Shown: positions 14,701 through 35,168, counted from the first letter of the stretch. The stretch is 64,000 bases of DNA from Planctomycetota bacterium (GCA_031409275.1 JANNXA010000033.1:138704-202703); one strand, 5' to 3'. Numbers and translations: made by a program. Notes: generated by a model from the sequence alone, not told the origin.

Positions 14701-15196
14701 CGAACACCGCCTCATGCGAAACCCCGGCTTGCGGCAAGATCGCCCAGCCGGTGGTCGGGGCGCCGTCGACGGCGGCGGCCACGTTGAACGCCGCCTGTTC
14801 GAAGTCGGCGCTTGGTCGTTCGAGCAGCACGGTCTTGAAGCCGTCGGAGTTCTTCGGCGCCTGCTCGACGACGAACTCGCTCAACACGAAGTTGCCGTTC
14901 GGCGCGAGCCCGGGTCCGCCGGAAGGGAATCCCGGATCGGCCAACGCCTCGATCCGCAGTCCGGTGATGCCGTTGGCGTCGACGAGGCACTCGAACGTGA
15001 GGCTCTCCGTCGCCGCTACCGCTCCGCCGACGCGGATCGCGCCGTCGCCCTCGAGCGTCAGCGTGGATCCATTCGCCGCGCTCATCCGCGCCGGTGTGAG
15101 GATCTGGAAGCGCGTCGTCTCCTGCGCCGCCGCGTGAGGCGCCAGCGCGATCGCGAGGAGAGCTGGAACGCACCGGACGACGTGGCGCCGACTCAT
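11735..15196 (-). CDS. Large secreted protein: discoidin-like domains + prenyltransferase/squalene-oxidase-repeat alpha-barrel + lectin-like jelly-rolls
   Basis: Signal peptide; GPGLAPNGNFVLSEF planctomycete domain; DLSNGQYAALGL, GSMTAGG, YWLYGVERVG, WYREGA barrel motifs; C-terminal ATASSQ..FAVD F5/8-like domain; ATGA-coupled to DUF1552. Confidence 0.75.
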   Translation of the reverse strand: MSRRHVVRCVPALLAIALAPHAAAQETTRFQILTPARMSAANGSTLTLEGDGAIRVGGAVAATESLTFECLVDANGITGLRIEALADPGFPSGGPGLAPNGNFVLSEFVVEQAPKNSDGFKTVLLERPSADFEQAAFNVAAAVDGAPTTGWAILPQAGVSHEAVFETQHDLGFDAGVKLKLRLDFNLGGQHIPGRLRLAYTTAPRPLRARRDLTAVNEAQGRVGAAIARGVRWLLDQQELDGLWAARAEDVKFGMTSLAAYTLLKCGVERDHPAVQRAATRIQCEPASSVYAAGFELLFLAELQDEALQGRIEETARRLLSWQQGGGGYSYPAAAPPDLSNGQYAALGLRAAAKRGVKIPPEAWIKLGDATLTHQEKASGAYEGAGFGYYPGGPPTGSMTAGGTCIVKIVDEQLAKTGASKTAFVTGWRKGVSWLDRNFAADSNPRSGASWLWYWLYGVERVGGLCDVAELAGKSWYREGARIGVETQKPEGSWDGDGGPQPTTCFALLFLARATSAVSGVTVRAENLWGGDDAQFDVSLRGSGDAPLTLWVSSFGGAAKLFEWPGEAGQGLHVDHVTYTVPGRALFGDSREAPTPWRLSESEPSGAWATPGFDDGKWKSVTGAVGDPQATGIAVRTSSAAAEFWLRREFTLDEAPIVDPQLFVAAPALPAAVPTAPLLCLFDEEADFAAKLTEASAGGSVATRDGNAANGRLWLAVQPQQVHHPALPGWNFPIASEPRPGEFRYLRFSWRKEGGGGVMIQLAVNGSWGAQTVRRHAGTNDLDWPSTALDDDAPREWRAETIDLVAAFGGATTLTGLALVPMAGGLAGFDAIYLARSPADFDAIPRSTAAHANVVRPLVDALPPGADAVATLEVLLNGTRVFSANSPIAPYSPVPAEAPLATLLHPGKNVVALHVRRGATFAGVDLALLDQRVLATVAGDPARPSGPERFATQVNFDRNGTYPIRALVRVRGAPTQSPAEMLFSSPLVSVPIRMAKDPELLGYAADPGRNLLGPGNATATASSQFDGNFAPAFAVDNLTSRGWLSADGDRRPTLSIELKKPTRADTVWITPIQQRGFEADRQGWRVRRVEVALDRGKSGTFEVLLPADGRKGVIRLPRVTVVRRLDVRMLDVSDLPAAKSAIGLGEVELQLRK

Positions 15197-16551
15197 GCGA
15201 GCGCCGAGAGGTGTCCGGTCGAGTCCCCGAAGCTCGACGCGCGTGCCCCGGTGCGATCGTGCAAGGCAAGGAAGAGGTTGCACAGCGGCGTGGCCGGCGC
15301 GACGCGGACGTGGCGACCGCTCTTCACCGTGCCGTTGCCGCCGCCGGCCAGCAGGATCGGCAGCTCATCGTGGTTGTGGGCGTTGCCATCGGAGATGCCC
15401 GCGCCGTAGAGCACGAGCGAGTGGTCGAGCAACGTGCCGTCGCCCTCGTTCATGGTGGCGAGCTTTCCGAGGAAGTAGGCGAGCTGCTCGACGTGGAAGC
15501 GGTCGATCTTCTCGACGCGCTCGATCCGGATCGGGTCGTCGCGGTGGTGCGACGTCTCGTGGTGGCCATCGGGCGCGCCGATCTGCGGATAGCTGCGGTT
15601 GTCGCCGTCGTTGGCGAACATGTGCGTCGCCACCCGGGTGAGGTCGGCCTGGAACGCCAACGCCAGCAGGTCACACAGCAGCCGAGCATGCTCGCCATGG
15701 TCGGCGGGCATTGCGGCGGGCAGGTCGATCACCGGTACCGGCCGGGTCGCCGCGTCGGCCTCCGCCTTGGCGAGGCGCTGCTCGATCTCGCGCACCGCCG
15801 TCAGGTACTCGTCGAGCTTCCGGCGATCGGTCGTGCCGAGCTGCACGGACAGGCGCGTCGCATCGTCGCGGGCGTAGTCGAGCAGGCTCTGCTTGCGGGC
15901 GAGGCGGCGCGCGCGCTGCTGCGGCGTCAGGCCGTCCGTCGCGCCGAAGAGGCGCTCGAAGAGGGCGCGCGGGTCGGTCTCCTTCAATTGCGGGGTCGTC
16001 GGCGAGCGCCACGAGATGTTGCACGAGTAGGCGCACGAATAGCCCGAGTCGCAATTGCCCGACGTCAGCGGCGGCGTGCAACCGACCTCGAGCGAGCGAA
16101 AGCGCGTCTCGTGGCCGATCCGTTCGGCCAGCACCTGGTCGATCGAGATGCCGTTGTGGATCTCGGCCCCCTCGGTCTTCTTCGGGTGGGCCCCCGTGAG
16201 GAAGCAGGCGGCGGAACGGGCATGGTCGCCTGGCCCGTCGCCGAGCGCCTCGGCGTTCTTCTGCGCCAGTCCGCTCAGCACCAGTAGCCGGTCGCGCACA
16301 CCCGCCAGTGGCTGGAGCGTCGGCGACAGCTCGAAGCTCGCCCCCTCGGTGGTGGGCGTCCACGAGTTCATCCACTTGCCGTTGGGCGCGAAGAGGAAGG
16401 CGAATCGCAGCGGTGCCGCGGAGGCGGCGACTCCGCGCGCCAAAGCGGCGCGAGGCAGCATCGCTTCGAGCCACGGCAGCGCCAACGCGACGCCGGCGCC
16501 GCGCAGGAAGGTCCGGCGGGAGAGCGGCGTTCGAGTCAGGAAGTGGGCCAT
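15193..16551 (-). CDS. DUF1552 domain protein (Tat-exported)
   Basis: SRRTFLRGAG..LALPWLEAM Tat leader; GDGPGDHARS, CDSGYSCAY, HHETSHH, DGNAHNH, GDSTG. Confidence 0.93.
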   Translation of the reverse strand: MAHFLTRTPLSRRTFLRGAGVALALPWLEAMLPRAALARGVAASAAPLRFAFLFAPNGKWMNSWTPTTEGASFELSPTLQPLAGVRDRLLVLSGLAQKNAEALGDGPGDHARSAACFLTGAHPKKTEGAEIHNGISIDQVLAERIGHETRFRSLEVGCTPPLTSGNCDSGYSCAYSCNISWRSPTTPQLKETDPRALFERLFGATDGLTPQQRARRLARKQSLLDYARDDATRLSVQLGTTDRRKLDEYLTAVREIEQRLAKAEADAATRPVPVIDLPAAMPADHGEHARLLCDLLALAFQADLTRVATHMFANDGDNRSYPQIGAPDGHHETSHHRDDPIRIERVEKIDRFHVEQLAYFLGKLATMNEGDGTLLDHSLVLYGAGISDGNAHNHDELPILLAGGGNGTVKSGRHVRVAPATPLCNLFLALHDRTGARASSFGDSTGHLSALA

Positions 16552-16558
16552 GGCGCGA

Positions 16559-18874
16559 TCATCGTCCTTCCGGCGCTGATGCGCGAGGGGCCTCGCCGCG
16601 CCGGCGCAGGAAGGCGTCGAGCGCGAGGAGGTCGACCACCAGCTTCTCCAGGCTCGGGCTCTTGCCGCGGTATCCGGTCACCAGAGCGTGAACGGCGCGC
16701 CGATCGTCGTCGAGGAGGCCGCGGCCAAGCGCGAAGGTCAGGAGCTGCTCGGCGAAGCAGCGCGTGAAGCTGTCGCCTTCCAACACCACCCGCTTCAGGT
16801 CGGACGCGCCATGCAGCACGGCGCCGTCGGGGAGCGTGCCGCCATCGTCGATGACGTGCGGACCGTCGCGATCGCGCCAGCCGCCCGTCGGACCGAAGTG
16901 CTCGAGCGTGAAGCCCAGCGCGTCCATCTTCACGTGGCAGCCGGCGCAGTCGGCCTTCGAGCGATGCTGCGCCAGCCGCTCGCGCAACGTCGCGGTCGCA
17001 GCGGCTTGCGCGGTGTCATCGAGCGCGCCCACGCCGGGCGGCGGCGGTGGCGGCGGCGTGCCGAGCAGCCGCTCCAGCACGAACTTGCCGCGCTTCACCG
17101 GCGACGTGCGCGTCGGGTTGCTGGTCAGCGTCAACAGGCTCGCGTGGCCCAGCAATCCACCGCGACTGCGATCGGTCACGCGGACGCGCTGCATCGCGCT
17201 GCCGACGATGCCGGCGATGCCGTAGTGCAGGGCGAGCCGTTCATTGACGAAGGTGAAGTCGGCGTCGACCAGTTCGCGCAGCGGGCGCCCCTCGCGGAAG
17301 ACCGCCTCGACGAAGAGTTCCGTCTCGAGGCGCATCGCGTCGCGCAACGCCTCGTCGAAGTCGGGGAACGCCTGCGGGTCGGGCGCGACGGCGGCGAGGC
17401 TTCGCAGCTGCAGCCACTGCGCCGCGAACTGGCTGATCAGGCTGTGGGCGCGCGGGTCGCGCAGCATGCGCCGCGCTTCGTCGGCCAGCACGTCGCGCTC
17501 GCGCAGGAGTCCCTGCTCGGCCAGCGTCGTCAGGCGTTCGTCGGGCAGGCTGCTCCACAGGAAGTAGGAGAGGCGCGAGGCGAGCTCGTGCGCGGAGAGC
17601 GGCCGCTGCGCGCTCGGATCGTCGGGCAGCGCGTCGATCTCGCTGCGGTAGAGGAAGTTCGGCGACACCAGGATCAGCGAGAGGCCGAGGCGCGTCGCCT
17701 CGACCAGCGTGTCGCCCGCCGCCAGCGCGGCGTCGACGGGAGCCAGCAGGCGCGCGAGCTCGAGCTCGCTGACCGGTCGCCGCCATGCGCGCGTCGCGAT
17801 CCGCTTCAGCGTCGCGGGAAGGCAGGCGCGCGTATGGGCGTGGTCGGCTCCACATGCGTAGAAACGCCGTTCCGATGCGGTGGGTGGCATCGGATCGAGC
17901 GGCCCCTCGACCTCGATCCAGTCGACCAGCAGGTTGCGATCGCGTTGGCCAGGGTCCGTCGCGTCGGCCTGGTAGTAGTCGTTCACGAAGGCGAGGTCGA
18001 GGCGTTGGCGACCCGCTTCGATGCGGCCGCGCCACTCGTGCGTTTCCGCCGTCGGCCGCTCGCAAGCCACCTCGCCGCGCAGCAGTTCCGGGGTGCCGCC
18101 ACGCTCGGACGCCACGGCCTTCATGGTGAGCACGAATCGGCACGGGTCGGGCCCCGCCTGGTCGCCAGACATGCGCGCCCGCACGAGGTACTCGCCGGCA
18201 CGGGGCACTTCGAACTCGGCCAGGATGCTGCCTTGCGCGAAGAGGACGCCGAAGTCGTCGCCGTAGTTCTCGTGCAGCGTGGTCGGCAGCGCCTCGCCCT
18301 CGAAGCGGCGCATCGCCGACGCGCGCAGTTCGGCGCCGGGCAGCGCCGCCGCGGCGATCTCCTCGGCCAGCGCGGCGTACTTCTCGAGCAGTAGCGGCGA
18401 CAGCGACAGCACGTCGCCGATGGTGTCGAAGCCGTAGCCGACCTCGTCGGGCGGCAGCTTCTCGGCGAGCGGCAGCGGCAGGTCGAGCAGATCGCGCACG
18501 CTGAAGGCGTATTCGAATCGCGACAGCCGCCGCAACGTCACGCGCCCCGGGTCGAGCGGCCAGCTCCCCGGCCCCGTACCCAGGCGCACCGCGAGCCAGC
18601 GTTGCGCCCTCTCCACCAGCCTGGCGTCGGCCGCCGGGGCGTCGGGCGGCGGCATCTCGCCGCACTCGAGCTTGTCGCGCACGCGCCGCCACGTGCCCGA
18701 CGACGCGCGCGCTTGCGCTTCGTCGGTGATGCCATCGAGCGCGAGCGACGCGGCCGGCTCCGCGCCCGCATGGCAGTCGAGGCAGCTGTCGCGCAGCAAC
18801 GGCAGCACGTCGCGCGCGAAGTCGGGCTCCTGCGCGAGCGCCGTGGCGAGCAGAGAAGGGAGCAACGATCGCAT
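16559..18874 (-). CDS. DUF1592/DUF1588/DUF1587/DUF1595/DUF1585 planctomycete cytochrome c protein
   Basis: CLDCH, EMPP, LRRLSRFEY, GFDTIGD, LASRLSYFLWSSLPD, TSPVKRG, CAGCHVKMD; start taken at ATG 18874. Confidence 0.93.
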   Translation of the reverse strand: MRSLLPSLLATALAQEPDFARDVLPLLRDSCLDCHAGAEPAASLALDGITDEAQARASSGTWRRVRDKLECGEMPPPDAPAADARLVERAQRWLAVRLGTGPGSWPLDPGRVTLRRLSRFEYAFSVRDLLDLPLPLAEKLPPDEVGYGFDTIGDVLSLSPLLLEKYAALAEEIAAAALPGAELRASAMRRFEGEALPTTLHENYGDDFGVLFAQGSILAEFEVPRAGEYLVRARMSGDQAGPDPCRFVLTMKAVASERGGTPELLRGEVACERPTAETHEWRGRIEAGRQRLDLAFVNDYYQADATDPGQRDRNLLVDWIEVEGPLDPMPPTASERRFYACGADHAHTRACLPATLKRIATRAWRRPVSELELARLLAPVDAALAAGDTLVEATRLGLSLILVSPNFLYRSEIDALPDDPSAQRPLSAHELASRLSYFLWSSLPDERLTTLAEQGLLRERDVLADEARRMLRDPRAHSLISQFAAQWLQLRSLAAVAPDPQAFPDFDEALRDAMRLETELFVEAVFREGRPLRELVDADFTFVNERLALHYGIAGIVGSAMQRVRVTDRSRGGLLGHASLLTLTSNPTRTSPVKRGKFVLERLLGTPPPPPPPGVGALDDTAQAAATATLRERLAQHRSKADCAGCHVKMDALGFTLEHFGPTGGWRDRDGPHVIDDGGTLPDGAVLHGASDLKRVVLEGDSFTRCFAEQLLTFALGRGLLDDDRRAVHALVTGYRGKSPSLEKLVVDLLALDAFLRRRGEAPRASAPEGR

Positions 18875-18970: not shown

Positions 18971-20247
<1,277 letters not shown>

Positions 20248-20251
<4 letters not shown>

Positions 20252-20625
20252 GGCTTCGCGCGGCGCCGCCGACCGCCCATCTCCTCGATCGCGCGCACGT
20301 CGATGCGCTGGCCGTGGGCGAGGTGCGGGTGGCCGGCGAGCAGTTCGAGGCAGTGGTCGTAGCCGTCGGCCTCGACGACGTAGAAGCCGCCGATCACTTC
20401 ATGCGACTCGGCGAACGGCCCGTCGGTGACCTTCACCTTGCCGCGCACCTTCTGCATGCGCTTGCCGCCTTCGTCCACGAGCTTGTGGCCCGCCTTGATG
20501 CGCTTGGTGGCATGCATCTGCATGCTCCACGCGACGTACTGCTTGATCACTTCCTGCATCTGCGCCGGCGTCATCTTCGCCCAGTAGGACGGGTCGTCGG
20601 TCAGCAGCACCATGAACTTTGCCAA
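20248..20625 (-). CDS. YciI/DGPF family protein
   Basis: TDGPFAESHEVIGGF motif; TTG start with GGGAGAG RBS; overlaps the sigma start. Confidence 0.93.
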
Positions 20626-23740: not shown

Positions 23741-25339
23741 TCACCTTCGCGGTAGGGGTGGCGCCATCCTCACGACCACCGATCCGTCGGCGTCGACGGT
23801 GGTGGCCTGCACGATCCCCTCGATGCGCAGCGCGGCGTCGTCGTAGCTCGGCTCGCCGGGGCGGGAGGGGCGCGTCAATGCGGCGACCACGGCGTCGGTC
23901 GGCGTCGGCGTGCGCACCAGCAGCTCATGGCGCTCGTCGTCGGCGATCACCGCGACGTCGCCGCTCTTCGTCTGCAGGGAAACGGCGCCGAAGTCGAAGT
24001 GGGTCGGCGACATCGAGAAGAGCCGCTGCCCGGGCGCGACCCGCAACACGCCGAAGGGGGTGTAGCTCGAAGGCGACATCGCCGCCGTCGTCAACGCCGA
24101 GACGTCGATGCGCAGCAGCGTGCCGCTCCCCTCCAGCACGGAGGCGATCCGCCGCGCGCGCTCCTGTTCGGCGCGCGCTGCCTGGATCTCCTTCGCGGCG
24201 ACCAGGGCCTCCCAGTTCGAGTCCGCTTCGAGCGCTTCGCTGCGTTCGGCGAGCTCCTCGGCCGAAGGCTGGCCCAGTGCGTCGGCGAGCAGCGCGGTCA
24301 GCGTCTCGCCCTGCGCCACTCGCCGTTTCCATTCGGGCAGCAGCGTGTCGAGCAGGCGGCCGATGGCGGCGCCGAAGAGGTAGCCGCGCCGCCGCACCAC
24401 CGCCGTGCCGAACTCGCTGCCGTTCACGCTCATCGTGTGGCGGGCGAGGCTCTTCAGCTGGAGCGACTGCTGCTCGACGGCGGCCGGCAGCTCGCTGCTG
24501 GCCTTGAAAGCGGGGCAGGCGGCGGCCAGCTCCTTCGAGATTCCGTGGTCGCGCCACAGCTCGAGCGAGCGCCATTCGACGTAGTTGGCCAACCCCTCGT
24601 TGGTCTCGTTGCTGTCCTCGGCGCGCACGACGGCGGCGGACAGTCCCGCGCGCCGCCGCGTGCGCTCCGCCAGGAACAGCAGCGCCTGCTCTTCGCGCTC
24701 GTCGGGCGCTTGCGCGGCCAGCGCGGCCAGCAGCGCATCGCCTTCGAGCTGCAGCCGTGCCGACCGCTCCGGTTCGAGGTCGGGGTAGTCGGCCATGTCG
24801 AGCTCGCTGTAGGCGGGGATCTTCAGTCCTCGATCGGCCCAGGCGTGGAACCCCTCGTGCACCTGCACCGAGAGGTTGTAGGAGTCGTCGATGGAAACGC
24901 GCGCGCCGCGGTCGGTGACGACGAGCGTGCGCACGTTGTTGATCAGCGTCGTGGTGTCCATCCCGACGGTGTAGACCGTTTCGCCCCGCCGCACGAAGAG
25001 CGGCTCGTCACCGAGCGGGTTGGTGCCGTTGAACCGCACGAACGACGGCGGCGGTTGCGGGAAGCGCAGCAGCACTTCCGCCTTGCCGGGGTTCATCAGC
25101 AACGCCGGGATCGCGCTGAGCCGATAGCCCGGCCACAGTTCCGCCTCGTGCGCGTCGACCAACCGGCACGCCTCGCGCCACTGCAACAGCGTGATGGGAT
25201 CGATGCCGAGCTCTTCCGTCGGGCACGACGCGGCCCGACTGGCGCCCGAAGTGGCGAGGACGAGGAGCGCTCCTCGCCACGCGAGTCGCCGGACGAATCG
25301 TGGCGATCGCGGAAGGAGGTTCGGGCGCGAATCGGTCAC
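23741..25339 (-). CDS. Secreted hypothetical protein, putative gluzincin metallopeptidase
   Basis: Signal-like N-terminus; HEGFH (HExxH) and downstream NEGLANYVE; GTG start with AAGGAG RBS. Confidence 0.6.
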   Translation of the reverse strand: MTDSRPNLLPRSPRFVRRLAWRGALLVLATSGASRAASCPTEELGIDPITLLQWREACRLVDAHEAELWPGYRLSAIPALLMNPGKAEVLLRFPQPPPSFVRFNGTNPLGDEPLFVRRGETVYTVGMDTTTLINNVRTLVVTDRGARVSIDDSYNLSVQVHEGFHAWADRGLKIPAYSELDMADYPDLEPERSARLQLEGDALLAALAAQAPDEREEQALLFLAERTRRRAGLSAAVVRAEDSNETNEGLANYVEWRSLELWRDHGISKELAAACPAFKASSELPAAVEQQSLQLKSLARHTMSVNGSEFGTAVVRRRGYLFGAAIGRLLDTLLPEWKRRVAQGETLTALLADALGQPSAEELAERSEALEADSNWEALVAAKEIQAARAEQERARRIASVLEGSGTLLRIDVSALTTAAMSPSSYTPFGVLRVAPGQRLFSMSPTHFDFGAVSLQTKSGDVAVIADDERHELLVRTPTPTDAVVAALTRPSRPGEPSYDDAALRIEGIVQATTVDADGSVVVRMAPPLPRR

Positions 25340-25465
25340 AGGGGGTCTCCTTCAGGGCAAGGCAGCCGATACGGAGCAGTGGGCGCGGGTGATGGAAAAA
25401 GAGTGCGCACGGTCCGCGCCTCGCCGGCGTTGCGACTTCGACCCCCACGACCGATGATCGCCGCG

Positions 25466-26071
25466 ATGTCGCCTCGCCGCAAAGCGGACGCCCTGTCGGA
25501 GCGCGGGCTCGAGCTGCTGCGGGCGCAGCTCGGCCGCGACGCGAAGGATGCGGCGGCCGAGCTCGAACGGCTGCGGCTGACGCTCACCCGCTTCTTCGAG
25601 TGGCGCGGCGCCGCGTGGCCCGACGAGCAGGTCGACGAGGTGCTCGATCGCGTCGTGCGCAAGCTGGCCGAGGGCACGGCGCTGCTCGATCTCTTCGCCT
25701 TCGCGCTCGGCATCGCGCGGCTGGTGCTGCTCGAGTCCGCGCGGCGGCGGCCGCCACCGCTGGGGCTCGCGGCGGCAGAGCAGGTGGAGGCGCCTCGCGA
25801 GCCGGCCGGCGACGACGACCCGGCGGGGTCGCTCCGGCGCGCACTCGAGGCGTGTCTCGGCGAGCTGCCGCACCCCGCGCGGGAGCTGCTGCTGAGCTAC
25901 TACACGGCGCGCGGTCGCGAGAAGATCGAGCGGCGCCAGCGGCTCGCCGCGCAGCTCCAGCTGAGCGAGTCGGCATTGCGCAACCGGGTGCAGCGGCTGC
26001 GTGACCGGCTCGAAGCTTGTGTGCGCGAACGAGAGCGACAGGTTTCGGGTCGCGAGGACACTCTTCGGTGA
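25466..26071 (+). CDS. ECF-like sigma-70 family factor
   Basis: LTRFFEWRG..PDEQVDEVLDRV region 2-like; LEACLGELP..RELLLSYY..LAAQLQLSESALRNRVQRLR region 4 HTH; start 25466 or 25454. Confidence 0.82.
   Translation: MSPRRKADALSERGLELLRAQLGRDAKDAAAELERLRLTLTRFFEWRGAAWPDEQVDEVLDRVVRKLAEGTALLDLFAFALGIARLVLLESARRRPPPLGLAAAEQVEAPREPAGDDDPAGSLRRALEACLGELPHPARELLLSYYTARGREKIERRQRLAAQLQLSESALRNRVQRLRDRLEACVRERERQVSGREDTLR
26036..26061 (+). promoter_or_regulatory. Putative cognate ECF promoter (copy 1) upstream of anti-sigma/CHAT
   Basis: CGACAGGTTTCG-N11-CAC; near-identical copy at 30282-30307. Confidence 0.55.
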
Positions 26072-26075
26072 AGTG

Positions 26076-26804
26076 ATGACGAGCCCCCACCCTACTCCCG
26101 ACCTGCGGCACGCCTACCTCCTCGGAGAACTCTCCGAGGCGGACGGCGCCGCGCTCGAATCGGCCTACTTCGCGAGCGGCGAGTCGCTCGCGGCGATGGA
26201 GGCCGCGGAGGAGGAGCTGATCGAGGCTGCGCTCGAGCGGCGCCTCGACCCGGTGGAGCAGGCGAAAGTCGAGAGCCGCCTCCTCGCCAGCGCACCGCTG
26301 CGTCGGCGCTTCGAGCTCGCGCGGCGATTGCAGGCGCGTGCCGGCGAGCCGTCGGTGCGGCGACGGCCGTGGCCGCCGATGGTCCGGGTGGCGCTGCTGG
26401 CGGCCACGGTCACGCTCGCCGCGCTGCTCTTCTGGCGCGAGGAGTCGTCGCCGCGATCGTCGCAGTCGCTGCTGCTGCCCGCGGTCCACACGCGCGGCGG
26501 CGGGTCGCTGCCCACGTTGGCGCTCGCGAGTGACACCGCGCAGGTGGAGCTGCGGTTGGCGAGCATCGACGCGCTGCCGCCGCCGCCGTGGCGTGCGTCG
26601 GTGGTCGCGGTCGGGGGCGGTGAGGCGTGGGTCGGCAGCGCCGTCGCCACGCCGACCGAGTCGACGGACGGCGTTCGAGCCGTCGTCGAGATCCCGGCGG
26701 CGCAGCTTCCCGCCGCCGACTATTTCGTGGGGCTGGTCAGCGCCGCGGCGCCACCCGACGAGGTGCCGCTTGCGCGCTGGTCGTTCCGCATCGTGCGCCG
26801 CTGA
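26076..26804 (+). CDS. Putative membrane-anchored anti-sigma factor
   Basis: N-terminal YLLGELS..ALE anti-sigma-like helical domain without Zn Cys, one TM (VALLAATVTLAALLFW), extracytoplasmic beta-rich C-terminus; follows the sigma gene by 4 bp. Confidence 0.7.
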   Translation: MTSPHPTPDLRHAYLLGELSEADGAALESAYFASGESLAAMEAAEEELIEAALERRLDPVEQAKVESRLLASAPLRRRFELARRLQARAGEPSVRRRPWPPMVRVALLAATVTLAALLFWREESSPRSSQSLLLPAVHTRGGGSLPTLALASDTAQVELRLASIDALPPPPWRASVVAVGGGEAWVGSAVATPTESTDGVRAVVEIPAAQLPAADYFVGLVSAAAPPDEVPLARWSFRIVRR

Positions 26805-26815
26805 GCCGCGTCGCG

Positions 26816-29800
26816 ATGGGGCTCGCACTGCTCCTCTCGCTGGCAGTCGTCGCGACCGGCGTTGCGGCGCCGCCGATCGACGAGGCGCCGCTCGAGTTGC
26901 GCCAGCCGCTGACGCGCAGCGTCGAGCCCGGAGTCGTCGACGCGCTGCGGATCGACGTCGCGGCGGGCGAGTACGTCGAGATCGCGTCCGAACGGCCCTA
27001 CCGCAGCCTCGGGCTGGAGCTCCTCGATCCTCACGGACGGGTCGTGGCGGCGACCCTCGGTGAGCCGCCGAACGGTTCGTCGCTTCGATTGGCCGCGGTG
27101 ATCGCCGATCCCGGCACCCATCTCCTCACGATCGCGAACGACGACGTCGCGATGTTGGAGAGCGGCGCGCCGGCGCGGCGCGGCCGTTGCCGCATCGAAC
27201 TGCTCGAGCGTCGGCCCGCGGTGGATGGCGACGCCGATCGGGTCGACGCCTTCGCGGCGCTCGATCGCGTGCGACGGACGGGGGCCGCAATCTCCGGGGA
27301 TGCCGTCGCGTTGCGCGGTGCGCGCGACGAGCTCGCCGCGATCGCCGCACGCTTCGACGCGCTCGCCGCGTTCGAGGGCGCCGCGCTCTGCTTCCACACG
27401 CTGGCGCAGCTCGACGGCGTCGCGCATGACGACGCGGCGGCGGCACGCTCCGCCGAGGCCGCGGTGGCGGCGTGGCGCGCGGCGGGTCGACGGCGCGAGG
27501 AGGGGCGCGCGCGGAGCGAGGTCGGGCTGATCGCCTACGCCGCCTATCAGCGCGAGGCGGCGCGCGCCTCATACGACGAGGCGCTGGCGATTCACGAGGA
27601 GGTCGGCGACGTCGAGTGGATCGCCGAGACGCTCGATCGCCGCGGCTGGTTCGAGCGCTGGTGCGGCGATCGTCGCGCCGCCATCGCGACGTACGAGCGC
27701 TGTCTGCCGTTGCGCGTCGAGGCCGCCGACTGGCACGGCGAGATCGTGACGCTCACCGATCTCGGCGTCGCCCACCTCGAGCTCGGCGAGGTTGCCGCCG
27801 CCGCCGCGTGGCTGCAGCGCGCGCGCGACCTCGCGGCGCCGGCGCGCGACGGGACGAGCTTCACGAAGCTGCTGACGGTGTCGGGATGGCTCGAGCTGAG
27901 GGTGGGAGACTTCGCCGCGGCGGCGGTCACGCAGCAGCGATCGCTGGCGCAGGCGCGCGCGTCGCGCGACCGGCGCGGCGAAGCGCAGGCGCTCCACAAT
28001 CTCGGCAGGACCTGGGTGGAGCTCGGCGAGCTCGCGCAGGCGCGCGCGGCGAGCGAGCAGGCGCTGGTGATCGTGCGCGAGACGGGACAGCGCAGCGGCG
28101 AGACCGCGGAGCTGCTCTTCCTGGCTCAGCTGCGCCGCCACGAAGGGGATCTCGACCAAGCGATCGCCGATGCCGCGGCGGCGCTGGCGCTCGCCGAGGC
28201 GATCCACGACCGCGCCTTCGAGGCGGCCGCGCGCAGGGTCCTCGGCGAATGTTCGGCCGTGAACGGCGACCTGGAACGCGGGCGCGAGGAGCTCGAGGCG
28301 GCGCTGGCGCTCGAGCGCGAACTCGGCATGAAGCCGGCGGAGTCGAGCACGCTCGTCTGGCTGGCGAACGTGGTCGCCGCGCAAGGCGATTTAGAAGCCG
28401 CGATGCGCCTCTCCGAGCAGGCGCTCGCGATCGTCGAGGCGTTCGGCCTGCGCTCGAACGAGGCGGTGACGCGCAGCACGCTCGCGGCGCACGCCTTCGC
28501 CATCGGACAGCGGGAGACCGCGCGCGTCCAGCTGGAGCAGGCGCTGGCGCTGGGAGAGTCGCTCCGGCGACGCATGCCGCAGGACGATTGGCGCAGCAGC
28601 TACTTCACGACGCAGCTCGACCGCTACGCGCTCCTGCTCGACGTCCTGCTCGAAGGGCACGACGGAGCGCCCGAGCCCGCCGCGGTGGCGCGCGCCTTCG
28701 AGGTCAGCGAAGCGGCGCGCGCTCGCAGCCTGCTCGACCTGCTCTCCGAGGCGAAGGTCGACGTGCGTGCGGGCGCCGATGCGACGCTGCTCGCGCAGGA
28801 GCGCGGCCTGACCCAGGAGCTCCACTTCGCCGCCGCCGCGTTGGATCAGCTGGTGCAAGGCGCGGCGACGGCGGCGCAAGCCGCGGCCGCGTCGGCGAAG
28901 GTCGAGGCGATCTCGAACCAGCTGCGCGAGATCGAGACGCGGCTGCGCGCCAGCTCGCCGCGATTCGCCGCGTTGAGTCCGGCGCGACCGTCGACGGCGG
29001 CGGCGATCCAGCACGAGCTGCTCGACGACGAGACGGTGCTCCTCGAATTCGCGTTCGGTCGTGAGGCGACCTGGCTCTTCGCGGTCACGCGGCAGTCGCT
29101 GGAGGCGCATCGGCTCGCGCCGCGCGCTGCGCTGGAGGCGTCGGCCTCCGCGGCGATCGCGGCGATGACCGCCCGCAGCGGGCGCATCGAGGAGGAGGGC
29201 GCTTCGCGTCAGGCGCGCATCGCCGCCGCCGATGCGCAGACGCCGGCGCGGCTCGCCGAGCTCCGGCGGCTCCTGCTCGGCCCGGTCGAAGGCGCGTTGC
29301 AGGGAGAGTGGCGCCACCGCCGCCTCGTCGTCGTGGCGCCGGGACGCCTCGCTGCGCTGCCCTTCGCCGCGCTCGTGGCCCAGGAGGTGGTCCTCCTGCC
29401 GTCGGCCTCGGTCCTCGCGATCGTGCGCTCCTCGGCCGCCCCGCGGCCGTCCGGCGTGCGCCCGATCGCCGTGCTGGCCGATCCCGTCTTCGAGCGCGAC
29501 GACCCGCGGTTGACGAGCGCGTCGAAGGGCGTGCCGTCGTCGTCCGCGACGGCGGAGCGCATGGGCTACGCGCGACTGCCGTTCTCGGGCGAAGAGGCGG
29601 CGCGGATCGCCGCTCTGGTCGAGCCGGGCCGCGTGCGGCGCTTCGAGGGATTCGATGCGACGCGTGATGCGGTGGTCGCCGGCACGTTCGCCGACTGCGG
29701 CATCGTCCACTTCGCGACGCACGGCCTCGTCGACGTCGAGAAACCGGAGCACAGCGGCATGGTCCTTTCGCTCCTCACGCGCGACGGCGCGGAGCAGGAC

Positions 29801-30145
29801 GGGCTTCTGTGTCTTGCGGACTTGTTTCGATTGCGGATGCCCGCCGACCTCGTCGTGTTGAGCGCGTGCAAGACGGCGCTGGGTCGCGACATCCCCGGCG
29901 AGGGGCTCGTCGGTTTGACGCGCGCCTTCTTCCATGCCGGCGCCTCCCGCGTGGTGGCGAGCTTGTGGGAGGTGGATGACCTCGCGACCGCCGAACTGAT
30001 GCGCCGCTTCTATCGAGGCGTGCTGCAGGAGGGGCGTTCGCCGGCGGCGGCGTTGCGGCTGGCGCAGGACGAGATGGCGGCGCAGGAGCGGTTCGCCGTT
30101 CCCTACTGGTGGGCAGGTTTCGTGCTTCAGGGCGAGTGGCGCTGA
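26816..30145 (+). CDS. Exported TPR-CHAT (caspase-like) protease
   Basis: Signal peptide MGLALLLSLAVVATGVAA, beta-sandwich, multiple TPRs, CHAT with HFATHG and VLSACKT catalytic dyad, ASLWEVDD, PYWWAGFVLQG. Confidence 0.93.
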   Translation: MGLALLLSLAVVATGVAAPPIDEAPLELRQPLTRSVEPGVVDALRIDVAAGEYVEIASERPYRSLGLELLDPHGRVVAATLGEPPNGSSLRLAAVIADPGTHLLTIANDDVAMLESGAPARRGRCRIELLERRPAVDGDADRVDAFAALDRVRRTGAAISGDAVALRGARDELAAIAARFDALAAFEGAALCFHTLAQLDGVAHDDAAAARSAEAAVAAWRAAGRRREEGRARSEVGLIAYAAYQREAARASYDEALAIHEEVGDVEWIAETLDRRGWFERWCGDRRAAIATYERCLPLRVEAADWHGEIVTLTDLGVAHLELGEVAAAAAWLQRARDLAAPARDGTSFTKLLTVSGWLELRVGDFAAAAVTQQRSLAQARASRDRRGEAQALHNLGRTWVELGELAQARAASEQALVIVRETGQRSGETAELLFLAQLRRHEGDLDQAIADAAAALALAEAIHDRAFEAAARRVLGECSAVNGDLERGREELEAALALERELGMKPAESSTLVWLANVVAAQGDLEAAMRLSEQALAIVEAFGLRSNEAVTRSTLAAHAFAIGQRETARVQLEQALALGESLRRRMPQDDWRSSYFTTQLDRYALLLDVLLEGHDGAPEPAAVARAFEVSEAARARSLLDLLSEAKVDVRAGADATLLAQERGLTQELHFAAAALDQLVQGAATAAQAAAASAKVEAISNQLREIETRLRASSPRFAALSPARPSTAAAIQHELLDDETVLLEFAFGREATWLFAVTRQSLEAHRLAPRAALEASASAAIAAMTARSGRIEEEGASRQARIAAADAQTPARLAELRRLLLGPVEGALQGEWRHRRLVVVAPGRLAALPFAALVAQEVVLLPSASVLAIVRSSAAPRPSGVRPIAVLADPVFERDDPRLTSASKGVPSSSATAERMGYARLPFSGEEAARIAALVEPGRVRRFEGFDATRDAVVAGTFADCGIVHFATHGLVDVEKPEHSGMVLSLLTRDGAEQDGLLCLADLFRLRMPADLVVLSACKTALGRDIPGEGLVGLTRAFFHAGASRVVASLWEVDDLATAELMRRFYRGVLQEGRSPAAALRLAQDEMAAQERFAVPYWWAGFVLQGEWR

Positions 30146-30281: not shown

Positions 30282-30307
30282 CGACACGTTTCGTTGGCGG
30301 TTGCCAC
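30282..30307 (+). promoter_or_regulatory. Putative cognate ECF promoter (copy 2) upstream of the di-heme protein gene
   Basis: CGACACGTTTCG-N11-CAC, 40 bp upstream of ATG 30348. Confidence 0.55.
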
Positions 30308-30347: not shown

Positions 30348-31928
30348 ATGGCAAGCGGGAAGACGTTCCTCACAGTTGGATGCATCGCGCTGGCGGGCGC
30401 TCGCGCTCACGCGCAGATGACCGATCTCACGCAGGCGCCCAATCGCGAGGGCGCCGGCATCCACAAGTCGCTCGCAGAGCAGGTCGGCGCCGGGCGCGGC
30501 GATGCGTTCACGCCCGACTCGTCGCGCTTCCTGATCGGACGCGATCCGTTCCGCTCGATCCGGCGTGGTCGTCAGCTGTTCCAACGCAAGTTCACGCTGG
30601 CGCAGGGCCTCGGTCCACGCACGCTCGACGGCGAAGGGGACCTCGAGCGCGATGGCTCCATCGGCGCCGGCCTCACCGACAGCTGCGCGTCGTGCCACAG
30701 CCGGCCCTTCGGCTCGGCGGGCGTCGGCGGCAACGTCTTCACGCGTCCCGACAGCCGTGACGCGCCGCACCTCTTCGGTCTCGGGCTGCAGGAGATGCTC
30801 GCCGACGAGATCACGCGCGCGCTCCGTTCGTTGCGCGCCGACGCGATCGCGCAGGCGCGCTCGTCGAATCGATCCGCCACCGTCGCGCTGACGGCGAAGG
30901 GGATCGCCTACGGTTCGCTGACGGCATTCCCGGATGGCTCGCTCGACACGACGCAGGTGGTCGGCGTCGATCCCGACCTGCGCGTGCGCCCCTTCTTCGC
31001 GCAAGGCGGCACCGTCTCGATTCGCGAGTTCGTGGTGGGAGCGCTCAATGCCGAGATGGGGCTCGAATGCCCCGATCCCGACACGTGGGCGGCCTCCCAA
31101 GGCAGTGACGTCGTGACGCCCTCCGGCATGTTGCTCTCGGGCTCGATCGATCGCATCGAAGCGCCGCCGGCGAGCCTCGTGACCGACGATCCCGACGGCG
31201 ACGGTGTCACCAACGAGATCGATGTCGCGCTCGTCGATCACCTCGAGTTCTACCTGCTGAACTACTTCAAGCCGGGACGCGGCGAGATCACCAGCGCGGT
31301 GAAGTCGGGGCGCAAGAGCTTCGAGGCGATCGGCTGCGCGAGCTGCCACGTGCGCGGCCTCTGGATCGACGAGGATCGTCGCGTGGCCGACGTCGAGACG
31401 GCGCACGACCCGCAACAGGGCAACGGAGTGTTCAACTCCCTCTACGCCGACGCGCAGCTGCGCCACGCGACGGTCGACGATGGCAGCGGCTACGCGCCGC
31501 TGCAGTCCGCCGCGCGCCAACCCTTCTTCGTCGAAGGGATCTTCACGGACTTCAAGCGCCACGACCTCGGCCCGGGTTTCCACGAGCGCAACTTCGACGG
31601 CTCGATCACGACGCACTTCATGACCGAGCCGCTGTGGGGCGTCGCCGATACGGCCCCGTACGGCCACGACGGCCGCAGCCCGCAGCTGCACGACGTCATC
31701 CTGCGCCACGGTGGCGAGGCGCAGTCGGCGCGCGACGCCTACGCCGCCGCCAGCGACACCACCCGGGCCAACATCCAGGCCTACCTGCGCAGCTTCGTCC
31801 TCTTCTCGCCGGAGGACACCGCTTCGGTGCTGAATCCGGTGAATCGCGCAGCGCCGAACTATCCGATGCATGGCCACGGCAGCATCAGCCTGACCCCGCT
31901 CTTCAACGACCCGAGCGACCTCGAATAG
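30348..31928 (+). CDS. Di-heme oxidoreductase family (DUF1111-like) secreted cytochrome c
   Basis: Signal peptide; SCASCH, PHLFGLGL, IGCASCH, FTDFKRHDLG, TEPLWGV..PYGHDGRS..ILRHGGEA; AGGAG RBS. Confidence 0.88.
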   Translation: MASGKTFLTVGCIALAGARAHAQMTDLTQAPNREGAGIHKSLAEQVGAGRGDAFTPDSSRFLIGRDPFRSIRRGRQLFQRKFTLAQGLGPRTLDGEGDLERDGSIGAGLTDSCASCHSRPFGSAGVGGNVFTRPDSRDAPHLFGLGLQEMLADEITRALRSLRADAIAQARSSNRSATVALTAKGIAYGSLTAFPDGSLDTTQVVGVDPDLRVRPFFAQGGTVSIREFVVGALNAEMGLECPDPDTWAASQGSDVVTPSGMLLSGSIDRIEAPPASLVTDDPDGDGVTNEIDVALVDHLEFYLLNYFKPGRGEITSAVKSGRKSFEAIGCASCHVRGLWIDEDRRVADVETAHDPQQGNGVFNSLYADAQLRHATVDDGSGYAPLQSAARQPFFVEGIFTDFKRHDLGPGFHERNFDGSITTHFMTEPLWGVADTAPYGHDGRSPQLHDVILRHGGEAQSARDAYAAASDTTRANIQAYLRSFVLFSPEDTASVLNPVNRAAPNYPMHGHGSISLTPLFNDPSDLE

Positions 31929-33635: not shown

Positions 33636-34574
33636 ATGTTCGATCGCCTGCAGGTCGAGAACTTCCGCGGCTTCGAGTCGCTCGGACTGCGGGAGTTGGC
33701 GCGTTGCAACCTGATCGTCGGCAGCAACGATCGCACGGTGGGATCGCTGTTCCATCGTCGCGACTTGACGAAGGTGATCGTCGTGCGCGGGAGTATCGAC
33801 AAAGGCGATCACGCGGGGAGGTCACGCGAAGTTCGCTACGAGCTGCGGGACGATCCGCCGGGGATTCGGCATCGCATGGCAGTACAGCGCAGCAACTCGA
33901 GTTGGGTCGTCCAGTTGAGTTTCGACGATGCCGCGCACAACGCACGAGGCGCCTGTGCGTTCACCTTCGGCGCCGGACGCGTGCAGGGCCGCACCGGGAA
34001 CGTAGTCCCCGACTTTCCCCTCGCGGTCATCACCACCAACCAGCCGCCCCGCCATCTCGCGCACTACGCTCGCTGGTTCTCCAAGCTCGAGGAGGCGGGG
34101 GGGCAGGACAAAGTCGTCGCGCTGCTGCGCGATGTCGAACCACGTCTGCAGGCGATTTCGGTGGCCGCTTCGGATCACGGCCCATATCTCCACGCCGATC
34201 TCGGCCTCGGCCGACGGATGCCGTGCTCCTTCCTCAGTGACGGCTTCACGCGCTTCCCGCTATTGGCCATGCGAATGTTCAAAGCGCGCAGCGGGATGAT
34301 GCTGATCGACGAGATCGAGTCGAGCTTCCACCGTAGCGTGCTCGACCGAGTTTTCGCCTTCGTGCGCGATGCAGCACGCGAGCTCGACGTGCAGCTCTTC
34401 GCGACGACCCACAGCTGGGAGATCCTCGAGGCGGCGCGCTCCGCCTTCGCTGCGTCGAAGCCCTACGAACTTGCCGTTCACCGCCTCGCGCACGACGGCG
34501 AGCGCGCCGTTGCCCATCACCTCGGTGAGGGCGCGATCGAGGCAGCTCTTGCGACGGGGCTCGACATCCGATGA
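33636..34574 (+). pseudogene. AAA_21/AbiEii-like ABC ATPase, open frame but Walker A region missing
   Basis: LQVENFRGF..NLIVGSN start, LSDG signature, LIDEIE Walker B and ATTHS H-loop are present, but the GK(T/S) expected right after GxN is absent. Confidence 0.72.
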
Positions 34575-35168
34575 AACCGCTGGCGACGCGTCCACCGCCG
34601 GCGCCGCTCTACGTTCTCGGTGAAGGGGAGGACGAGCGCCACTTTTTCGAGCAACTCTGCCGCGTGCACGGGATCGAGGGGGTTCACTGCCTCCAGTACG
34701 ACGGTCGCGACGCGCTTCGCGGCGACCTTGCGTCGTTGCGCTCGATCCTGGAACCCGCAGTCAGAACGTTGTTGATCGTCCAAGACGCCGATGACGCGGC
34801 GGCCGTGGCCTTCACGCGGGTGCGCGATGCTCTTGCCGCGAACGGCTTTCCCGCGCCCGACGCCTCGAACGTGCTCGCGGTTGGCGCGCCGGCGACCTGC
34901 GTCCTCATCTTGCCCGGCGATGGTCAGGCCGGAACGGGAGTGCGTCGAGCAGTTCCTCGAGTGCATCACGAAGCGCAGTCGTCAGTCGATAGCCGCTGCC
35001 CACAAGGCACCGATCCGCGCGTGGCTCACGACCCGTTTGCGCGCTGAAACACGCGTCGGGCTGGCCGCAAGGCTCGGCTCGCTGCCGCTCGACCGGCTGC
35101 CGTTCGCGGCTCTCGCGGATCGGTTGCGCGAGCTCGCGTCGCTCAGAAACGCCCATCGAGCGCCGTGA
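34571..35168 (+). pseudogene. DUF3226-like (TOPRIM-like) partner of the ATPase, frameshifted
   Basis: VLGEGEDE and IVQDAD motifs; frame 1 ends at LPGDGQAGT, and the protein-like continuation ECVEQFLECI..KAPIRAWL is in the +1 frame from about 34938; ATGA overlap with the ATPase. Confidence 0.7.

Follow-up and report, generated by a model that had tools for sequence, protein, structure and literature searches.

Genomic context of the cassette

Within the window, which is the entire 64,000-nt stretch of DNA analyzed here, three tightly spaced genes lie on the plus strand, as do all features described below unless stated otherwise. The first (ORF1, 25466-26071) encodes a divergent ECF-type sigma factor of 201 amino acids, or of 205 if an in-frame ATG at 25454 serves as an alternative start. 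The second (ORF2, 26076-26804) encodes a single-pass anti-sigma-like protein of 242 amino acids, and the third (ORF3, 26816-30145) encodes a caspase-like protease of 1109 amino acids, predicted to be exported, with PPC-like, TPR, and CHAT regions. The coordinates, the strand, and the gaps of 4 bp (sigma/anti-sigma) and 11 bp (anti-sigma/CHAT, with a stop codon in between) all agree with the original prediction. The three-gene cassette is real, and its arrangement reflects more than chance because it recurs in homologous loci. A public run, possibly the source of this very DNA, also has the whole window on a single assembled contig without a break. A fourth gene (30348-31928) encodes a DHOR/PF06537-like di-haem cytochrome c of 526 amino acids that is likely exported; this gene and two promoter-like motif copies had been overlooked. 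An upstream minus-strand gene encoding 532 amino acids (23744-25339) has no homolog in 127 related loci and is not counted as part of the cassette.

The cassette had been proposed to be stand-alone and free of CRISPR, and the locus is indeed not linked to CRISPR. Craspase loci contain Cas7-11, Csx30, Csx31, and a CRISPR array, but here no array was seen among the 20 largest repeat families listed for the window, no type III RAMP (Cas7-11) match was found across the 93%-complete genome, and the sigma factor scores far below the NF041236 cutoff (15.5 versus 100 bits). The cas1/cas3 genes of this genome are on a different contig from the cassette.

Conservation of the triad

A locus search with a single sequence returned no matches, and an alignment-based search recovered related loci. 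Similarly, a single anti-sigma sequence retrieved 3 proteins while a profile retrieved thousands, representing 4,777 clusters at 50% identity (E ≤ 1e-30). The hosts are all uncultured and mostly Acidobacteriota (33 of 43 labelled tree rows), and Atlas matches are solely to unnamed Acidobacteriota clusters.

The anti-sigma gene lies directly 3' of the sigma gene in 46/46 genome loci and 70/71 metagenome loci, or 116 of the 117 loci that could be evaluated by having at least 300 nt downstream. Among the 29 genome loci with flanks of at least 5 kb, 26 carry a TPR-CHAT gene within 10 kb of the sigma/anti-sigma pair, placed upstream, downstream, or divergently, and three (L015, L025, and L041) have none within that distance. 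The neighborhood survey suggested at the outset thus finds the triad conserved. In homologous loci, too, CHAT and anti-sigma are separate open reading frames, frequently in another order or transcribed divergently. The CHAT gene is fragmented in several other loci.

A divergent ECF-type sigma factor and a likely membrane anti-sigma

The window copy of the sigma factor matches Pfam Sigma70_r4_2 at an E value of 0.098, and 66 of 100 family members carry this domain; the sigma2 Pfam domain has no match in the family. Against NCBIfam models, the protein scores 51 bits for TIGR02989 (E = 1.5e-13; below the cutoff of 124.55) and 19.5 bits for TIGR02937 (cutoff, 42.9), and a sequence search of solved structures found no relative. 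Although the sequence is divergent, the fold model agrees with the ECF-like sigma originally called. It comprises two helical domains with a low-confidence linker between them, its best matches are ECF sigma factors (M. tuberculosis sigma L, E. coli sigma E, and AlgU), and 6dv9_F is matched at E = 7.5e-4 with a probability of 1.00. The size and two-domain build are those of ECF (group 4 sigma-70) factors, which have only the sigma2 and sigma4 domains.

Hydropathy and modeling divide the anti-sigma into a cytoplasmic helical domain, a transmembrane helix, and a periplasmic Ig-like beta-sandwich. The N-terminal domain (residues 8 to 90; 26097-26345) consists of two tandem copies of a zf-HC2-like unit, neither of them with zinc ligands: zf-HC2 is matched in 39/78 members at E ≤ 0.01, the two halves align with each other at an HHalign probability of 95.7, and the first 90 residues contain no Cys in 63 of 78 members, one in 14, and two in 1. 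The family accordingly lacks the HxxxCxxC pattern of zinc-associated anti-sigma (ZAS) domains. The transmembrane helix (residues 102 to 120; 26379-26435; Kyte-Doolittle, 2.03) is preceded by RRR, and a comparable stretch occurs in 209 of 218 family members, so that the single transmembrane segment first noted here is common to the family. Encoded at position +1 of the sigma factor, with an N-terminal helical domain and one transmembrane helix, the protein has the layout of a class I ASD and likely holds the sigma factor inactive by binding it.

The periplasmic domain carries Arg140-Gly141 (26493-26498), a candidate P1/P1' cleavage site that the model places in a loop (residues 135 to 146) after the first sandwich strand (129 to 134). 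Arg140 is invariant in all 78 anti-sigmas and in 141/141 further homologs, of which 138 have Gly, Ser, or Ala next to it; these 141 are the top matches of a profile that rewards Arg140, which makes the count partly circular. Asp215 (26718-26720) is nearly invariant (76/78 and 141/141). Fold matches of the anti-sigma were limited to generic Ig-like sandwiches, with Z below 8 throughout (highest, 7.7). Csx30 and DdvA are absent among the fold matches listed, which leaves room for kinship, and no relative was found in solved structures searched by sequence. Two resemblances were dropped as generic: one to a cysteine protease inhibitor (EhICP2; Z, 5.5), the other, at E = 0.56, to a type IX secretion C-terminal domain.

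A likely exported TPR-CHAT protease

ORF3 combines TPRs (TPR_12, E = 4.5e-21) with a CHAT domain (residues 813 to 1107; E = 1.2e-60, above the cutoff), and its presumptive catalytic residues, His969 in HFATHG (29720-29722) and Cys1018 in VLSAC (29867-29869), are invariant in 47/47 CHATs. The dyad first read as intact in the window is therefore kept across the family, and these features make the protein a member of the TPR-CHAT proteases (clan CD), with its proteolytic activity predicted. Arg920 is likewise invariant (47/47). In a sequence search of solved structures, the CHAT query retrieved only TPR proteins and a weak stretch of separase.

The signal peptide and export proposed for this protein find support in hydropathy. 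Hydrophobicity along the protein peaks in its first 19 residues (Kyte-Doolittle, 2.11), a stretch that closes with a cleavage-like, Ala-rich site, giving a signal-peptide-like N terminus of about residues 1 to 18 (26816-26869). Such a start is present in 38 of 41 CHATs, compared with 0/82 other frames and 0/123 TPR windows. CHAT is thus likely exported to the compartment that holds the periplasmic domain of the anti-sigma. Behind the signal-like segment is a beta domain (residues 25 to 135; 26888-27220) found in 41 of 43 full-length homologs. It is weakly PPC-like, in that 3 of 8 tested copies match Pfam PPC, all below the cutoff, and the window's copy has no match. Either this domain or the TPR array may sense a ligand.

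Predicted complex of CHAT and the anti-sigma

The original prediction called for modeling CHAT with the C-terminal domain of the anti-sigma, and the resulting complex seats the periplasmic loop at the active site. The complex scores 0.69, against 0.00 for the best of 3 controls, and passes a mark reached by 116/157 solved complexes and 2/215 mismatched pairs. Repeated runs share at least 92% of contacts, with a partner pLDDT of at least 77. The interface brings anti-sigma residues 136 to 145 against CHAT residues 968 to 971 and 1016 to 1019, and CHAT Arg920 pairs with anti-sigma Asp215 at an expected error of 1.7 Å. Searching solved structures by sequence turned up no chain of Csx29/Csx30 or DdvA, so that a pass owed to memorized structures is less probable but still conceivable. 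CHAT is therefore predicted to bind the anti-sigma and to hold the Arg loop next to its dyad.

The prediction reports touching residues and does not give the geometry of Arg140 in an S1 pocket. Its best-supported contacts are mostly at anti-sigma strands 213 to 217 and 232 to 240 and not at Arg140, as would be expected if CHAT were a binding co-regulator, similar to RseB or a TonB-dependent transducer, that shields the Ig-like domain until a signal displaces it, with the Arg loop docking uncut as a pseudosubstrate. The position of the separase S1 residue (Asp2151 in C. thermophilum) points in the same direction, being Ala, Ser, or Thr in 47/47 CHATs, as judged from a weak ungapped alignment (E = 0.77) carried on for 3 residues beyond the point where it stops. 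Moreover, DdvA of Myxococcus has its dyad in a resting state and dyad mutants like the wild type, and autoproteolysis was not seen in the work described (PMC11506125). However, a mere docking role would not account for the invariant CHAT dyad, and pseudosubstrates such as securin, as described, avoid a P1 Arg (PMC10317155), whereas Arg followed by a small residue is the rule here. We thus regard a noncatalytic CHAT as unlikely. If CHAT cleaves and that weak alignment holds, Arg specificity would need a residue other than the separase-type Asp; the invariant Asp1055 and Asp896 are candidates. Asp1055 was considered as the separase S1 Asp and was not confirmed by the alignment comparison.

The position of Arg140 bears on a second alternative. 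A cut there falls after the first beta-sandwich strand, and the pieces could stay together. CHAT might then cut constitutively as a maturation step, leaving the pieces joined via strand 129 to 134 until a later signal pulls the Ig-like domain off, much as in self-cleaved anti-sigmas whose pieces are described as associated until a signal arrives (PMC11506125). This seems quite improbable to us, as the solved TPR-CHAT proteases described rest inactive until an allosteric trigger (PMC10028731, PMC11506125) and constitutive cleavage would leave the large TPR array without a role.

Promoter-like motif and likely output genes

A promoter-like motif, CGACACGTTT-N13-CAC, occurs twice at the locus. 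Copy 1 (CGACAG GTTT-N13-CAC; 26036-26061) lies within the 3'-terminal part of the sigma coding sequence and thus ahead of the anti-sigma/CHAT pair, and copy 2 (CGACAC GTTT-N13-CAC; 30282-30307) lies 66 nt before the start of the haem-protein gene; a matrix whose training set came from loci other than this one scores them at 20.0 and 16.2, respectively. The motif is present in 18/19 upstream regions of haem genes, which formed the training set. As an independent test, regions upstream of anti-sigma genes were scanned: 27 of 75 carry it with the 17-nt spacer and 48 are without it, whereas each of six other spacers gives 3 to 8, and random windows give 23 of 1290. It is gene oriented with a fixed spacer, is found before anti-sigma, sigma, CHAT, and neighboring genes, and recurs ahead of exported-protein genes in relatives. 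The locus thus has a motif of the bipartite -35/-10 kind expected of the target promoters of ECF sigma factors, which often lie in the locus of the sigma factor itself, and this sigma may recognize it. A genome-wide regulon was not found among the 24 matrix hits scoring at least 13, in which the cassette sites rank 2 and 7; six others inspected by eye look intragenic.

The fourth-gene protein matches DHOR (E = 2e-11) and has two CxxCH motifs (CASCH at residues 113 and 330). A homolog is present in 19 of 127 related loci, and solved structures searched by sequence contain no relative. Recurrent neighbors and motif-bearing genes at the related loci encode exported haem proteins, lectins, FG-GAP proteins, and proteases, and these output genes vary between loci while the triad stays constant. 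The di-haem cytochrome c is likely the output gene of the cassette.

The motif also lies upstream of 5/42 full-length CHAT starts and, in the window, of the anti-sigma/CHAT pair, and CHAT may accordingly be viewed as an output of the sigma factor and not its trigger, processing itself or other exported proteins (the haem protein, lectins, or pro-proteases) while a general site-1 protease cuts the anti-sigma. Many CHATs do carry, in the loop that leads into their own RLPFS strand, an Arg followed by a small residue. However, this loop is not conserved, no conserved self-cleavage site was found in it among homologs, and the window copy has no Arg-Gly there. Variable outputs beside a constant triad also argue against this reading, as do the invariant Arg140, Asp215, and predicted complex, which it leaves unexplained, and we consider it very unlikely.

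A model for trans-envelope regulated proteolysis

In the RseA/DegS/RseP pathway, a site-1 cut of a single-pass anti-sigma is followed by RseP cleavage and sigma release. DegS is a general PDZ serine protease, while site 1 here would be served by a dedicated, co-encoded cysteine protease of clan CD. We propose that the cassette is probably a switch of this kind. The membrane anti-sigma would keep the ECF-type sigma inactive, with the likely exported TPR-CHAT docked on its periplasmic Ig-like domain. A signal would trigger CHAT to cut after the invariant Arg140, and the short stub on the transmembrane helix would be cleaved by an RseP-type site-2 protease; the genome contains such a gene (M50 plus PDZ, after dxr). 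Degradation of the cytoplasmic domain would free the sigma to transcribe from the motif copies; the one ahead of the anti-sigma/CHAT pair would reset the switch, and the one ahead of the adjacent exported-protein gene, here that of the di-haem cytochrome c, would give the output. The initial reading as a sigma/anti-sigma/exported CHAT switch is thus largely supported, and of the outcomes named with it as refuting, none that sequence analysis and modeling could address was observed. Binding of the sigma by the anti-sigma, its release through cleavage and RseP, recognition of the motif, and sensing of a ligand are the steps we infer. There are precedents for the proposed cut: HetF is described to cut PatU3 between R117 and S118 (PMC9457339), and separase to need a P1 Arg, the uncleavable inhibitor securin being without one (PMC10317155). 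A P1 Arg is no CHAT rule, since Craspases are described to cleave after Met or Leu (PMC11506125).

Relationship to known systems

Craspase had been invoked as the model for the cassette, but the closest system is instead DdvA/DdvS of Myxococcus xanthus, of which the cassette is a split variant. As described, both have an ECF sigma, a single-pass anti-sigma, and a periplasmic TPR-CHAT with a His/Cys dyad, and CHAT is likewise proposed as the site-1 protease and RseP as the site-2 protease (PMC11506125). In DdvA, however, TPR-CHAT is fused to the anti-sigma with proposed self-cleavage in trans, the active site is without three helices, the anti-sigma domain binds zinc (CHCC), and a CBASS/CRISPR island is controlled (PMC11506125). 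Here, the protease is a separate signal-peptide-like protein, the anti-sigma has a duplicated zinc-free N-terminal domain, its own Ig-like domain, and the invariant Arg, and the targets encode exported proteins, with no such island at the locus or scanned neighbors.

The type III-E Craspase (Csx29/Csx30/CASP-sigma) similarly has a separate TPR-CHAT that uses its active CHAT domain to bind the anti-sigma C-terminal domain and frees an ECF-type sigma by cutting a loop there, as is predicted here, but it is described as a cytoplasmic system, switched on by Cas7-11 with target RNA, without a transmembrane anti-sigma, and cutting after Met or Leu (PMC10028731, 10.1101/2022.08.17.504292). A CRISPR-independent pairing of sigma and TPR-CHAT is already in print as ECF54, which has a conserved TPR-CHAT neighbor (0.71 per ECF) and proposed proteolytic regulation (PMC7826278, PMC8999054). 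ECF54 differs in being 100% actinobacterial, with no recognized anti-sigma in the description available, with subtilase and carboxypeptidase-regulatory-like neighbors, and with a predicted GTATCAG/CTCC promoter (PMC7826278, PMC8999054); the present family has CGACAC/CAC(T), a transmembrane anti-sigma at +1, and mostly Acidobacteriota hosts, and is set apart by description and not by sequence membership. HetF/PatU3/HetZ of Anabaena PCC 7120 is also CRISPR independent and involves Cys-dependent cleavage of a transcriptional-regulator inhibitor after Arg (R117-S118), which is predicted here. It is, however, divisome associated and developmental, and the text available neither terms HetZ a sigma factor nor describes an exported protease or periplasmic substrate (PMC9457339).

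In a literature search that covered mainly open-access main texts, no split cassette of sigma, transmembrane anti-sigma, and exported TPR-CHAT was found. New here are the invariant Arg140, the predicted loop-at-dyad complex, and the motif with its exported haem-protein gene. The chances seem about even that the cassette represents a large undescribed family of self-contained envelope switches. In these, TPRs would let a dedicated, exported, receptor-like relative of caspases perceive an extracellular cue, a fixed Arg would be its cutting site in the cognate anti-sigma, and the output gene behind a fixed promoter would be interchangeable. If so, the cassette would offer a portable sensor-to-transcription module and the first clan CD site-1 protease that works outside the cytoplasm on a separate substrate open to assay. 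The DdvA study states that a periplasmic CHAT can be validated as a site-1 protease only once its signal is found (PMC11506125). Since enzyme and substrate are separate here and Arg140, Arg920/Asp215, the promoter, and the target gene are specified, the model is testable without knowing the signal. Through it, a large family of Acidobacteriota regulators that lack annotation would also gain a function, and CHAT proteases would be tied to the regulation of exported enzymes and haem proteins, not phage defense alone.

The best-studied relatives are nevertheless defense linked, and an AAA ATPase/DUF3226 pair located 1.7 kb past the haem gene matches the PADLOC PDC-M38A/AbiLi models, as would suit an antiphage or conflict module, with CHAT triggered by a phage product and defense genes turned on by the sigma. 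Such a role appears quite unlikely, given that the recurrent neighbors and motif-bearing genes are those for exported proteins noted above and that no cas or CBASS gene is present among 25 neighbor representatives and 30 further neighbors scanned; the ATPase pair itself has no motif copy and falls outside the recurrent neighbor clusters (the PADLOC scan covered this locus). A defense trigger would fit the same chemistry as the proposed switch and thus concerns its purpose only.

Conservation and host range of the cassette

The sigma (25466-26071), anti-sigma (26076-26804), and TPR-CHAT (26816-30145) genes lie on the forward strand with gaps of 4 and 11 bp between them. As originally predicted, the anti-sigma has a transmembrane (TM) helix, and the CHAT protein carries TPRs, a His969/Cys1018 dyad, and, by hydropathy, a hydrophobic N terminus. 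Cassette GC content (0.72 to 0.74) is inside the window's own range. A public-run contig covers 23500-33200 and is identical to the window there; since that contig is possibly where this DNA came from, the agreement argues only weakly against an assembly artifact.

Conservation was assessed in 47 loci that a sigma alignment retrieved from genomes and in the 80 best of 219 from metagenomes. Where at least 300 nt of sequence follow sigma, an anti-sigma homolog lies directly 3' of it in 46/46 genome and 70/71 metagenome loci. Among genome loci flanked by at least 5 kb on the upstream side and 5.5 kb on the downstream side, 26 of 29 contain TPR-CHAT (L015, L025, and L041 do not). The triad is conserved by these counts. 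TPR-CHAT lies upstream, downstream, or divergent relative to sigma, indicating that the linkage outlasts rearrangement. The CHAT gene is fragmented in L005, L009, L012, L020, L038, L042, and L046, which may reflect sequencing frameshifts or decay. The predicted independence from CRISPR also stands: cas1 and cas3 are on contig C23 of the host genome, no RAMP domain was found in that genome, and none of the 20 largest repeat families listed for the window is a CRISPR array. In the Nevskia loci L037 (11526-16640) and L039 (11838-16754), a large pro-kumamolisin/Ig-repeat protein comes after the triad in place of a heme protein.

By record title, Acidobacteriota account for 33/43 labeled host rows and Pseudomonadota for six, with a few others. 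The sigma was not found in 41 searched genomes of the host's own genus, family, or order (58 to 95% complete), and 19 further genomes of the host phylum gave a single weak match. This distribution fits, without proving, horizontal acquisition. An anti-sigma profile search returned 4,777 clusters at E<=1e-30.

The sigma factor, with 319 homologs out of 5785 candidates, is divergent by sequence. The window copy has no Pfam match at E<=0.01 and matches NCBIfam ECF models, all below their cutoffs; among 100 family members, sigma4 is matched in 66 and sigma2 in none. Searching solved structures by sequence gave no relative. Its AlphaFold model (pLDDT 88) comprises two helical domains, and the best fold matches are the ECF sigma factors sigma L, sigma E, and AlgU.

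An invariant arginine at the predicted CHAT interface

In the anti-sigma model (pLDDT 89), five N-terminal helices are followed by a TM helix at 101-120 and by an eight-stranded sandwich at 129-241 for which a fold search matches generic Ig-like folds only. The N-domain is a tandem repeat of a zf-HC2-like unit (HHalign, 95.7%) without zinc ligands. Beyond it, Arg140 is the sole invariant residue in 78/78 full-length anti-sigmas, a set of 91 extracted ORFs minus 13 duplicates, near-duplicates, or broken sequences that includes the window copy and one database protein. Both Arg140 and Asp215 are retained in 141/141 of a further set of representatives (150 listed, less 9 that overlapped the earlier one), a partly circular count, yet the profile behind it rewards other columns too, and most of those vary; position 141 holds G, S, or A in 138/141. 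Arg140 is modeled in a loop (135-146) after the first strand. In the anti-sigmas of L006 (10674-11636) and L024 (10701-11633), a long coiled-coil-like stalk separates the Arg loop from the TM helix, and the Arg site can therefore be distant from the membrane.

The dyad is invariant in 47/47 CHAT C-terminal halves. An N-terminal beta domain, weakly PPC-like in 3/8 CHATs tested, is found in 41/43 full-length ORFs and is immediately preceded by a hydrophobic stretch in 38/41, compared with 0/82 in other frames and 0/123 in TPR windows; this export test is based on hydropathy (12-residue mean of at least 2.0) rather than on SignalP. Complex prediction of CHAT residues 590-1109 with anti-sigma residues 121-242 scored 0.69, and the best of three controls scored 0.00. 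The score mark is reached by 116/157 solved complexes and 2/215 mismatched pairs and is rough here because the alignments are custom. The runs share at least 92% of contacts, with partner pLDDT of at least 77. The predicted interface involves anti-sigma residues 136-145, 213-217, and 232-240 and CHAT residues 895-897, 917-925, 968-971, 1016-1019, and 1049-1060; the prediction leaves the Arg side-chain position unspecified. Asp215-Arg920, each independently invariant, is among the best-supported predicted contact pairs. The model supports CHAT binding to the periplasmic domain of the anti-sigma. Csx29-Csx30 is a solved analogue of this complex, and sequence searches of solved structures found neither chain. 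That CHAT binds as a co-regulator and does not cut is, in our judgment, unlikely.

Related proteases offer precedents for cleavage after arginine. HetF cleaves PatU3 at the R117-S118 bond, and mutating R117 confers resistance (PMC9457339); separase requires Arg at P1, which Asp2151 binds in the C. thermophilum enzyme, and securin lacks this Arg and so escapes cleavage (PMC10317155). The Asp2151 position, counted along a weak alignment, is Ala, Ser, or Thr in 47/47 CHATs, and craspases are described as cleaving after Met or Leu (PMC11506125), which together argue against a simple transfer of Arg specificity.

A shared promoter-like motif and a fourth gene

The three genes originally proposed are as given, but a fourth gene (30348-31928, forward strand) and a promoter-like motif were overlooked; the cassette is real and conserved, and it has more components than the original description gave it. 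The product of the fourth gene has a signal peptide, two CxxCH motifs, and a DHOR match; we would guess at a peroxidase-type or iron-related role, going by the Pfam name and a search listing. Homologs occur in 19/127 related loci (7/29 well-flanked), and a second di-heme family occurs in 7/127 (4/29 well-flanked). Two tandem distant di-heme paralogs (~30% identity) lie elsewhere in the host genome (contig C42, 9374-11884).

The motif CGACACGTTT-N13-CAC(T) precedes the heme genes in 18/19 regions (23 candidates minus 4 with miscalled starts or sigma overlap). Tested independently, the core occurred with a 17-nt spacer in 27/75 anti-sigma upstream regions, compared with 3 to 8 of 75 for other spacers (14-16 and 18-20) and 23/1290 random windows. 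ECF promoters consist of -35 and -10 elements with fixed spacing and orientation, and we infer from these same two properties that the motif fits such a promoter. The window contains exactly two copies, starting at 26036 and 30282 on the forward strand (matrix scores of 20.0 and 16.2, trained on other loci), although the pattern was picked after both had been seen. The first ends 14 nt 5' of the anti-sigma start codon (ATG), which would leave the transcript a very short leader. Of the 89 strong matrix sites across the 127 loci, 68 are followed on the same strand by a gene start no more than 250 nt away. The products of other motif-bearing genes include ricin-type lectin, FG-GAP, thermolysin-like, and unknown proteins, with signal-like starts in many, as well as one PLP decarboxylase. 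Back-to-back copies with abutting -35 elements separate sigma from a divergent heme gene in L009 (9806-9807), L016, L017, L029, L030, L032, L054, and L112. The core also precedes 18/107 sigma starts and 5/42 CHAT starts.

A proposed switch and its precedents

We favor, as the probable arrangement, a switch in which sigma would be held by the anti-sigma while the exported protease rests until a ligand is bound by its TPR or beta domain. Once triggered, the protease would cut the anti-sigma after Arg140, and RseP with cytoplasmic proteases would free sigma to transcribe the heme gene and to re-make the anti-sigma and protease. The host genome encodes an RseP-type protein (M50 with PDZ domains, after dxr). 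A constitutive maturation cut of the anti-sigma by CHAT has, in our estimate, a low probability. We consider it very improbable that the protease is an output of sigma.

The architecture has precedents. The cassette would work like DdvA/DdvS (PMC11506125) but is without the fusion, zinc site, and defense island and is hence not a member. A defense purpose, which would bear on the trigger only, seems improbable. The enzyme-substrate logic is shared with Craspase, but the cassette is without Cas7-11 (PMC10028731, 10.1101/2022.08.17.504292). ECF54 is a CRISPR-free sigma and TPR-CHAT neighborhood with proposed proteolytic control and, unlike the cassette, without an anti-sigma (PMC7826278, PMC8999054). 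The literature search, with incomplete coverage of papers and supplements, found no description of a split, exported form. With a site, an interface, a promoter, and a target specified, the proposed mechanism becomes directly testable.

Other genes in the window and host genome

Two more sigma/TM anti-sigma-like/CHAT triads, of an unrelated family with no match to the profiles of the window cassette family, occur in the host genome on contigs C50 (L132, 3627-7935) and C10 (L133, 3027-6831). Their CHATs terminate in a hydrophobic anchor and then basic residues; in the anti-sigma linkers, FLG or QLG takes the place of Arg-Gly; and an FG-GAP protein comes next after each triad. A fourth TPR-CHAT protein of 1338 aa is on contig C7 (L131, 3975-7988), with no sigma gene called nearby.

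Within the window, a 532-aa protein with a signal-like start (23741-25339, reverse) is divergent from sigma and has no Pfam or NCBIfam match and no homolog among the 127 related loci. An AAA ATPase and a DUF3226 protein (33636-35047, forward) match the PADLOC PDC-M38A/AbiLi models and are a possible defense pair. A YCII protein and an ECF sigma with a DUF6596/TPR extension (18971-20625, reverse) form an ordinary ECF42-type pair. A DUF1592/PSCyt and DUF1552 pair and a large protein of the F5/8 type C kind (11738-18874, reverse) represent families typical of planctomycete-like genomes.
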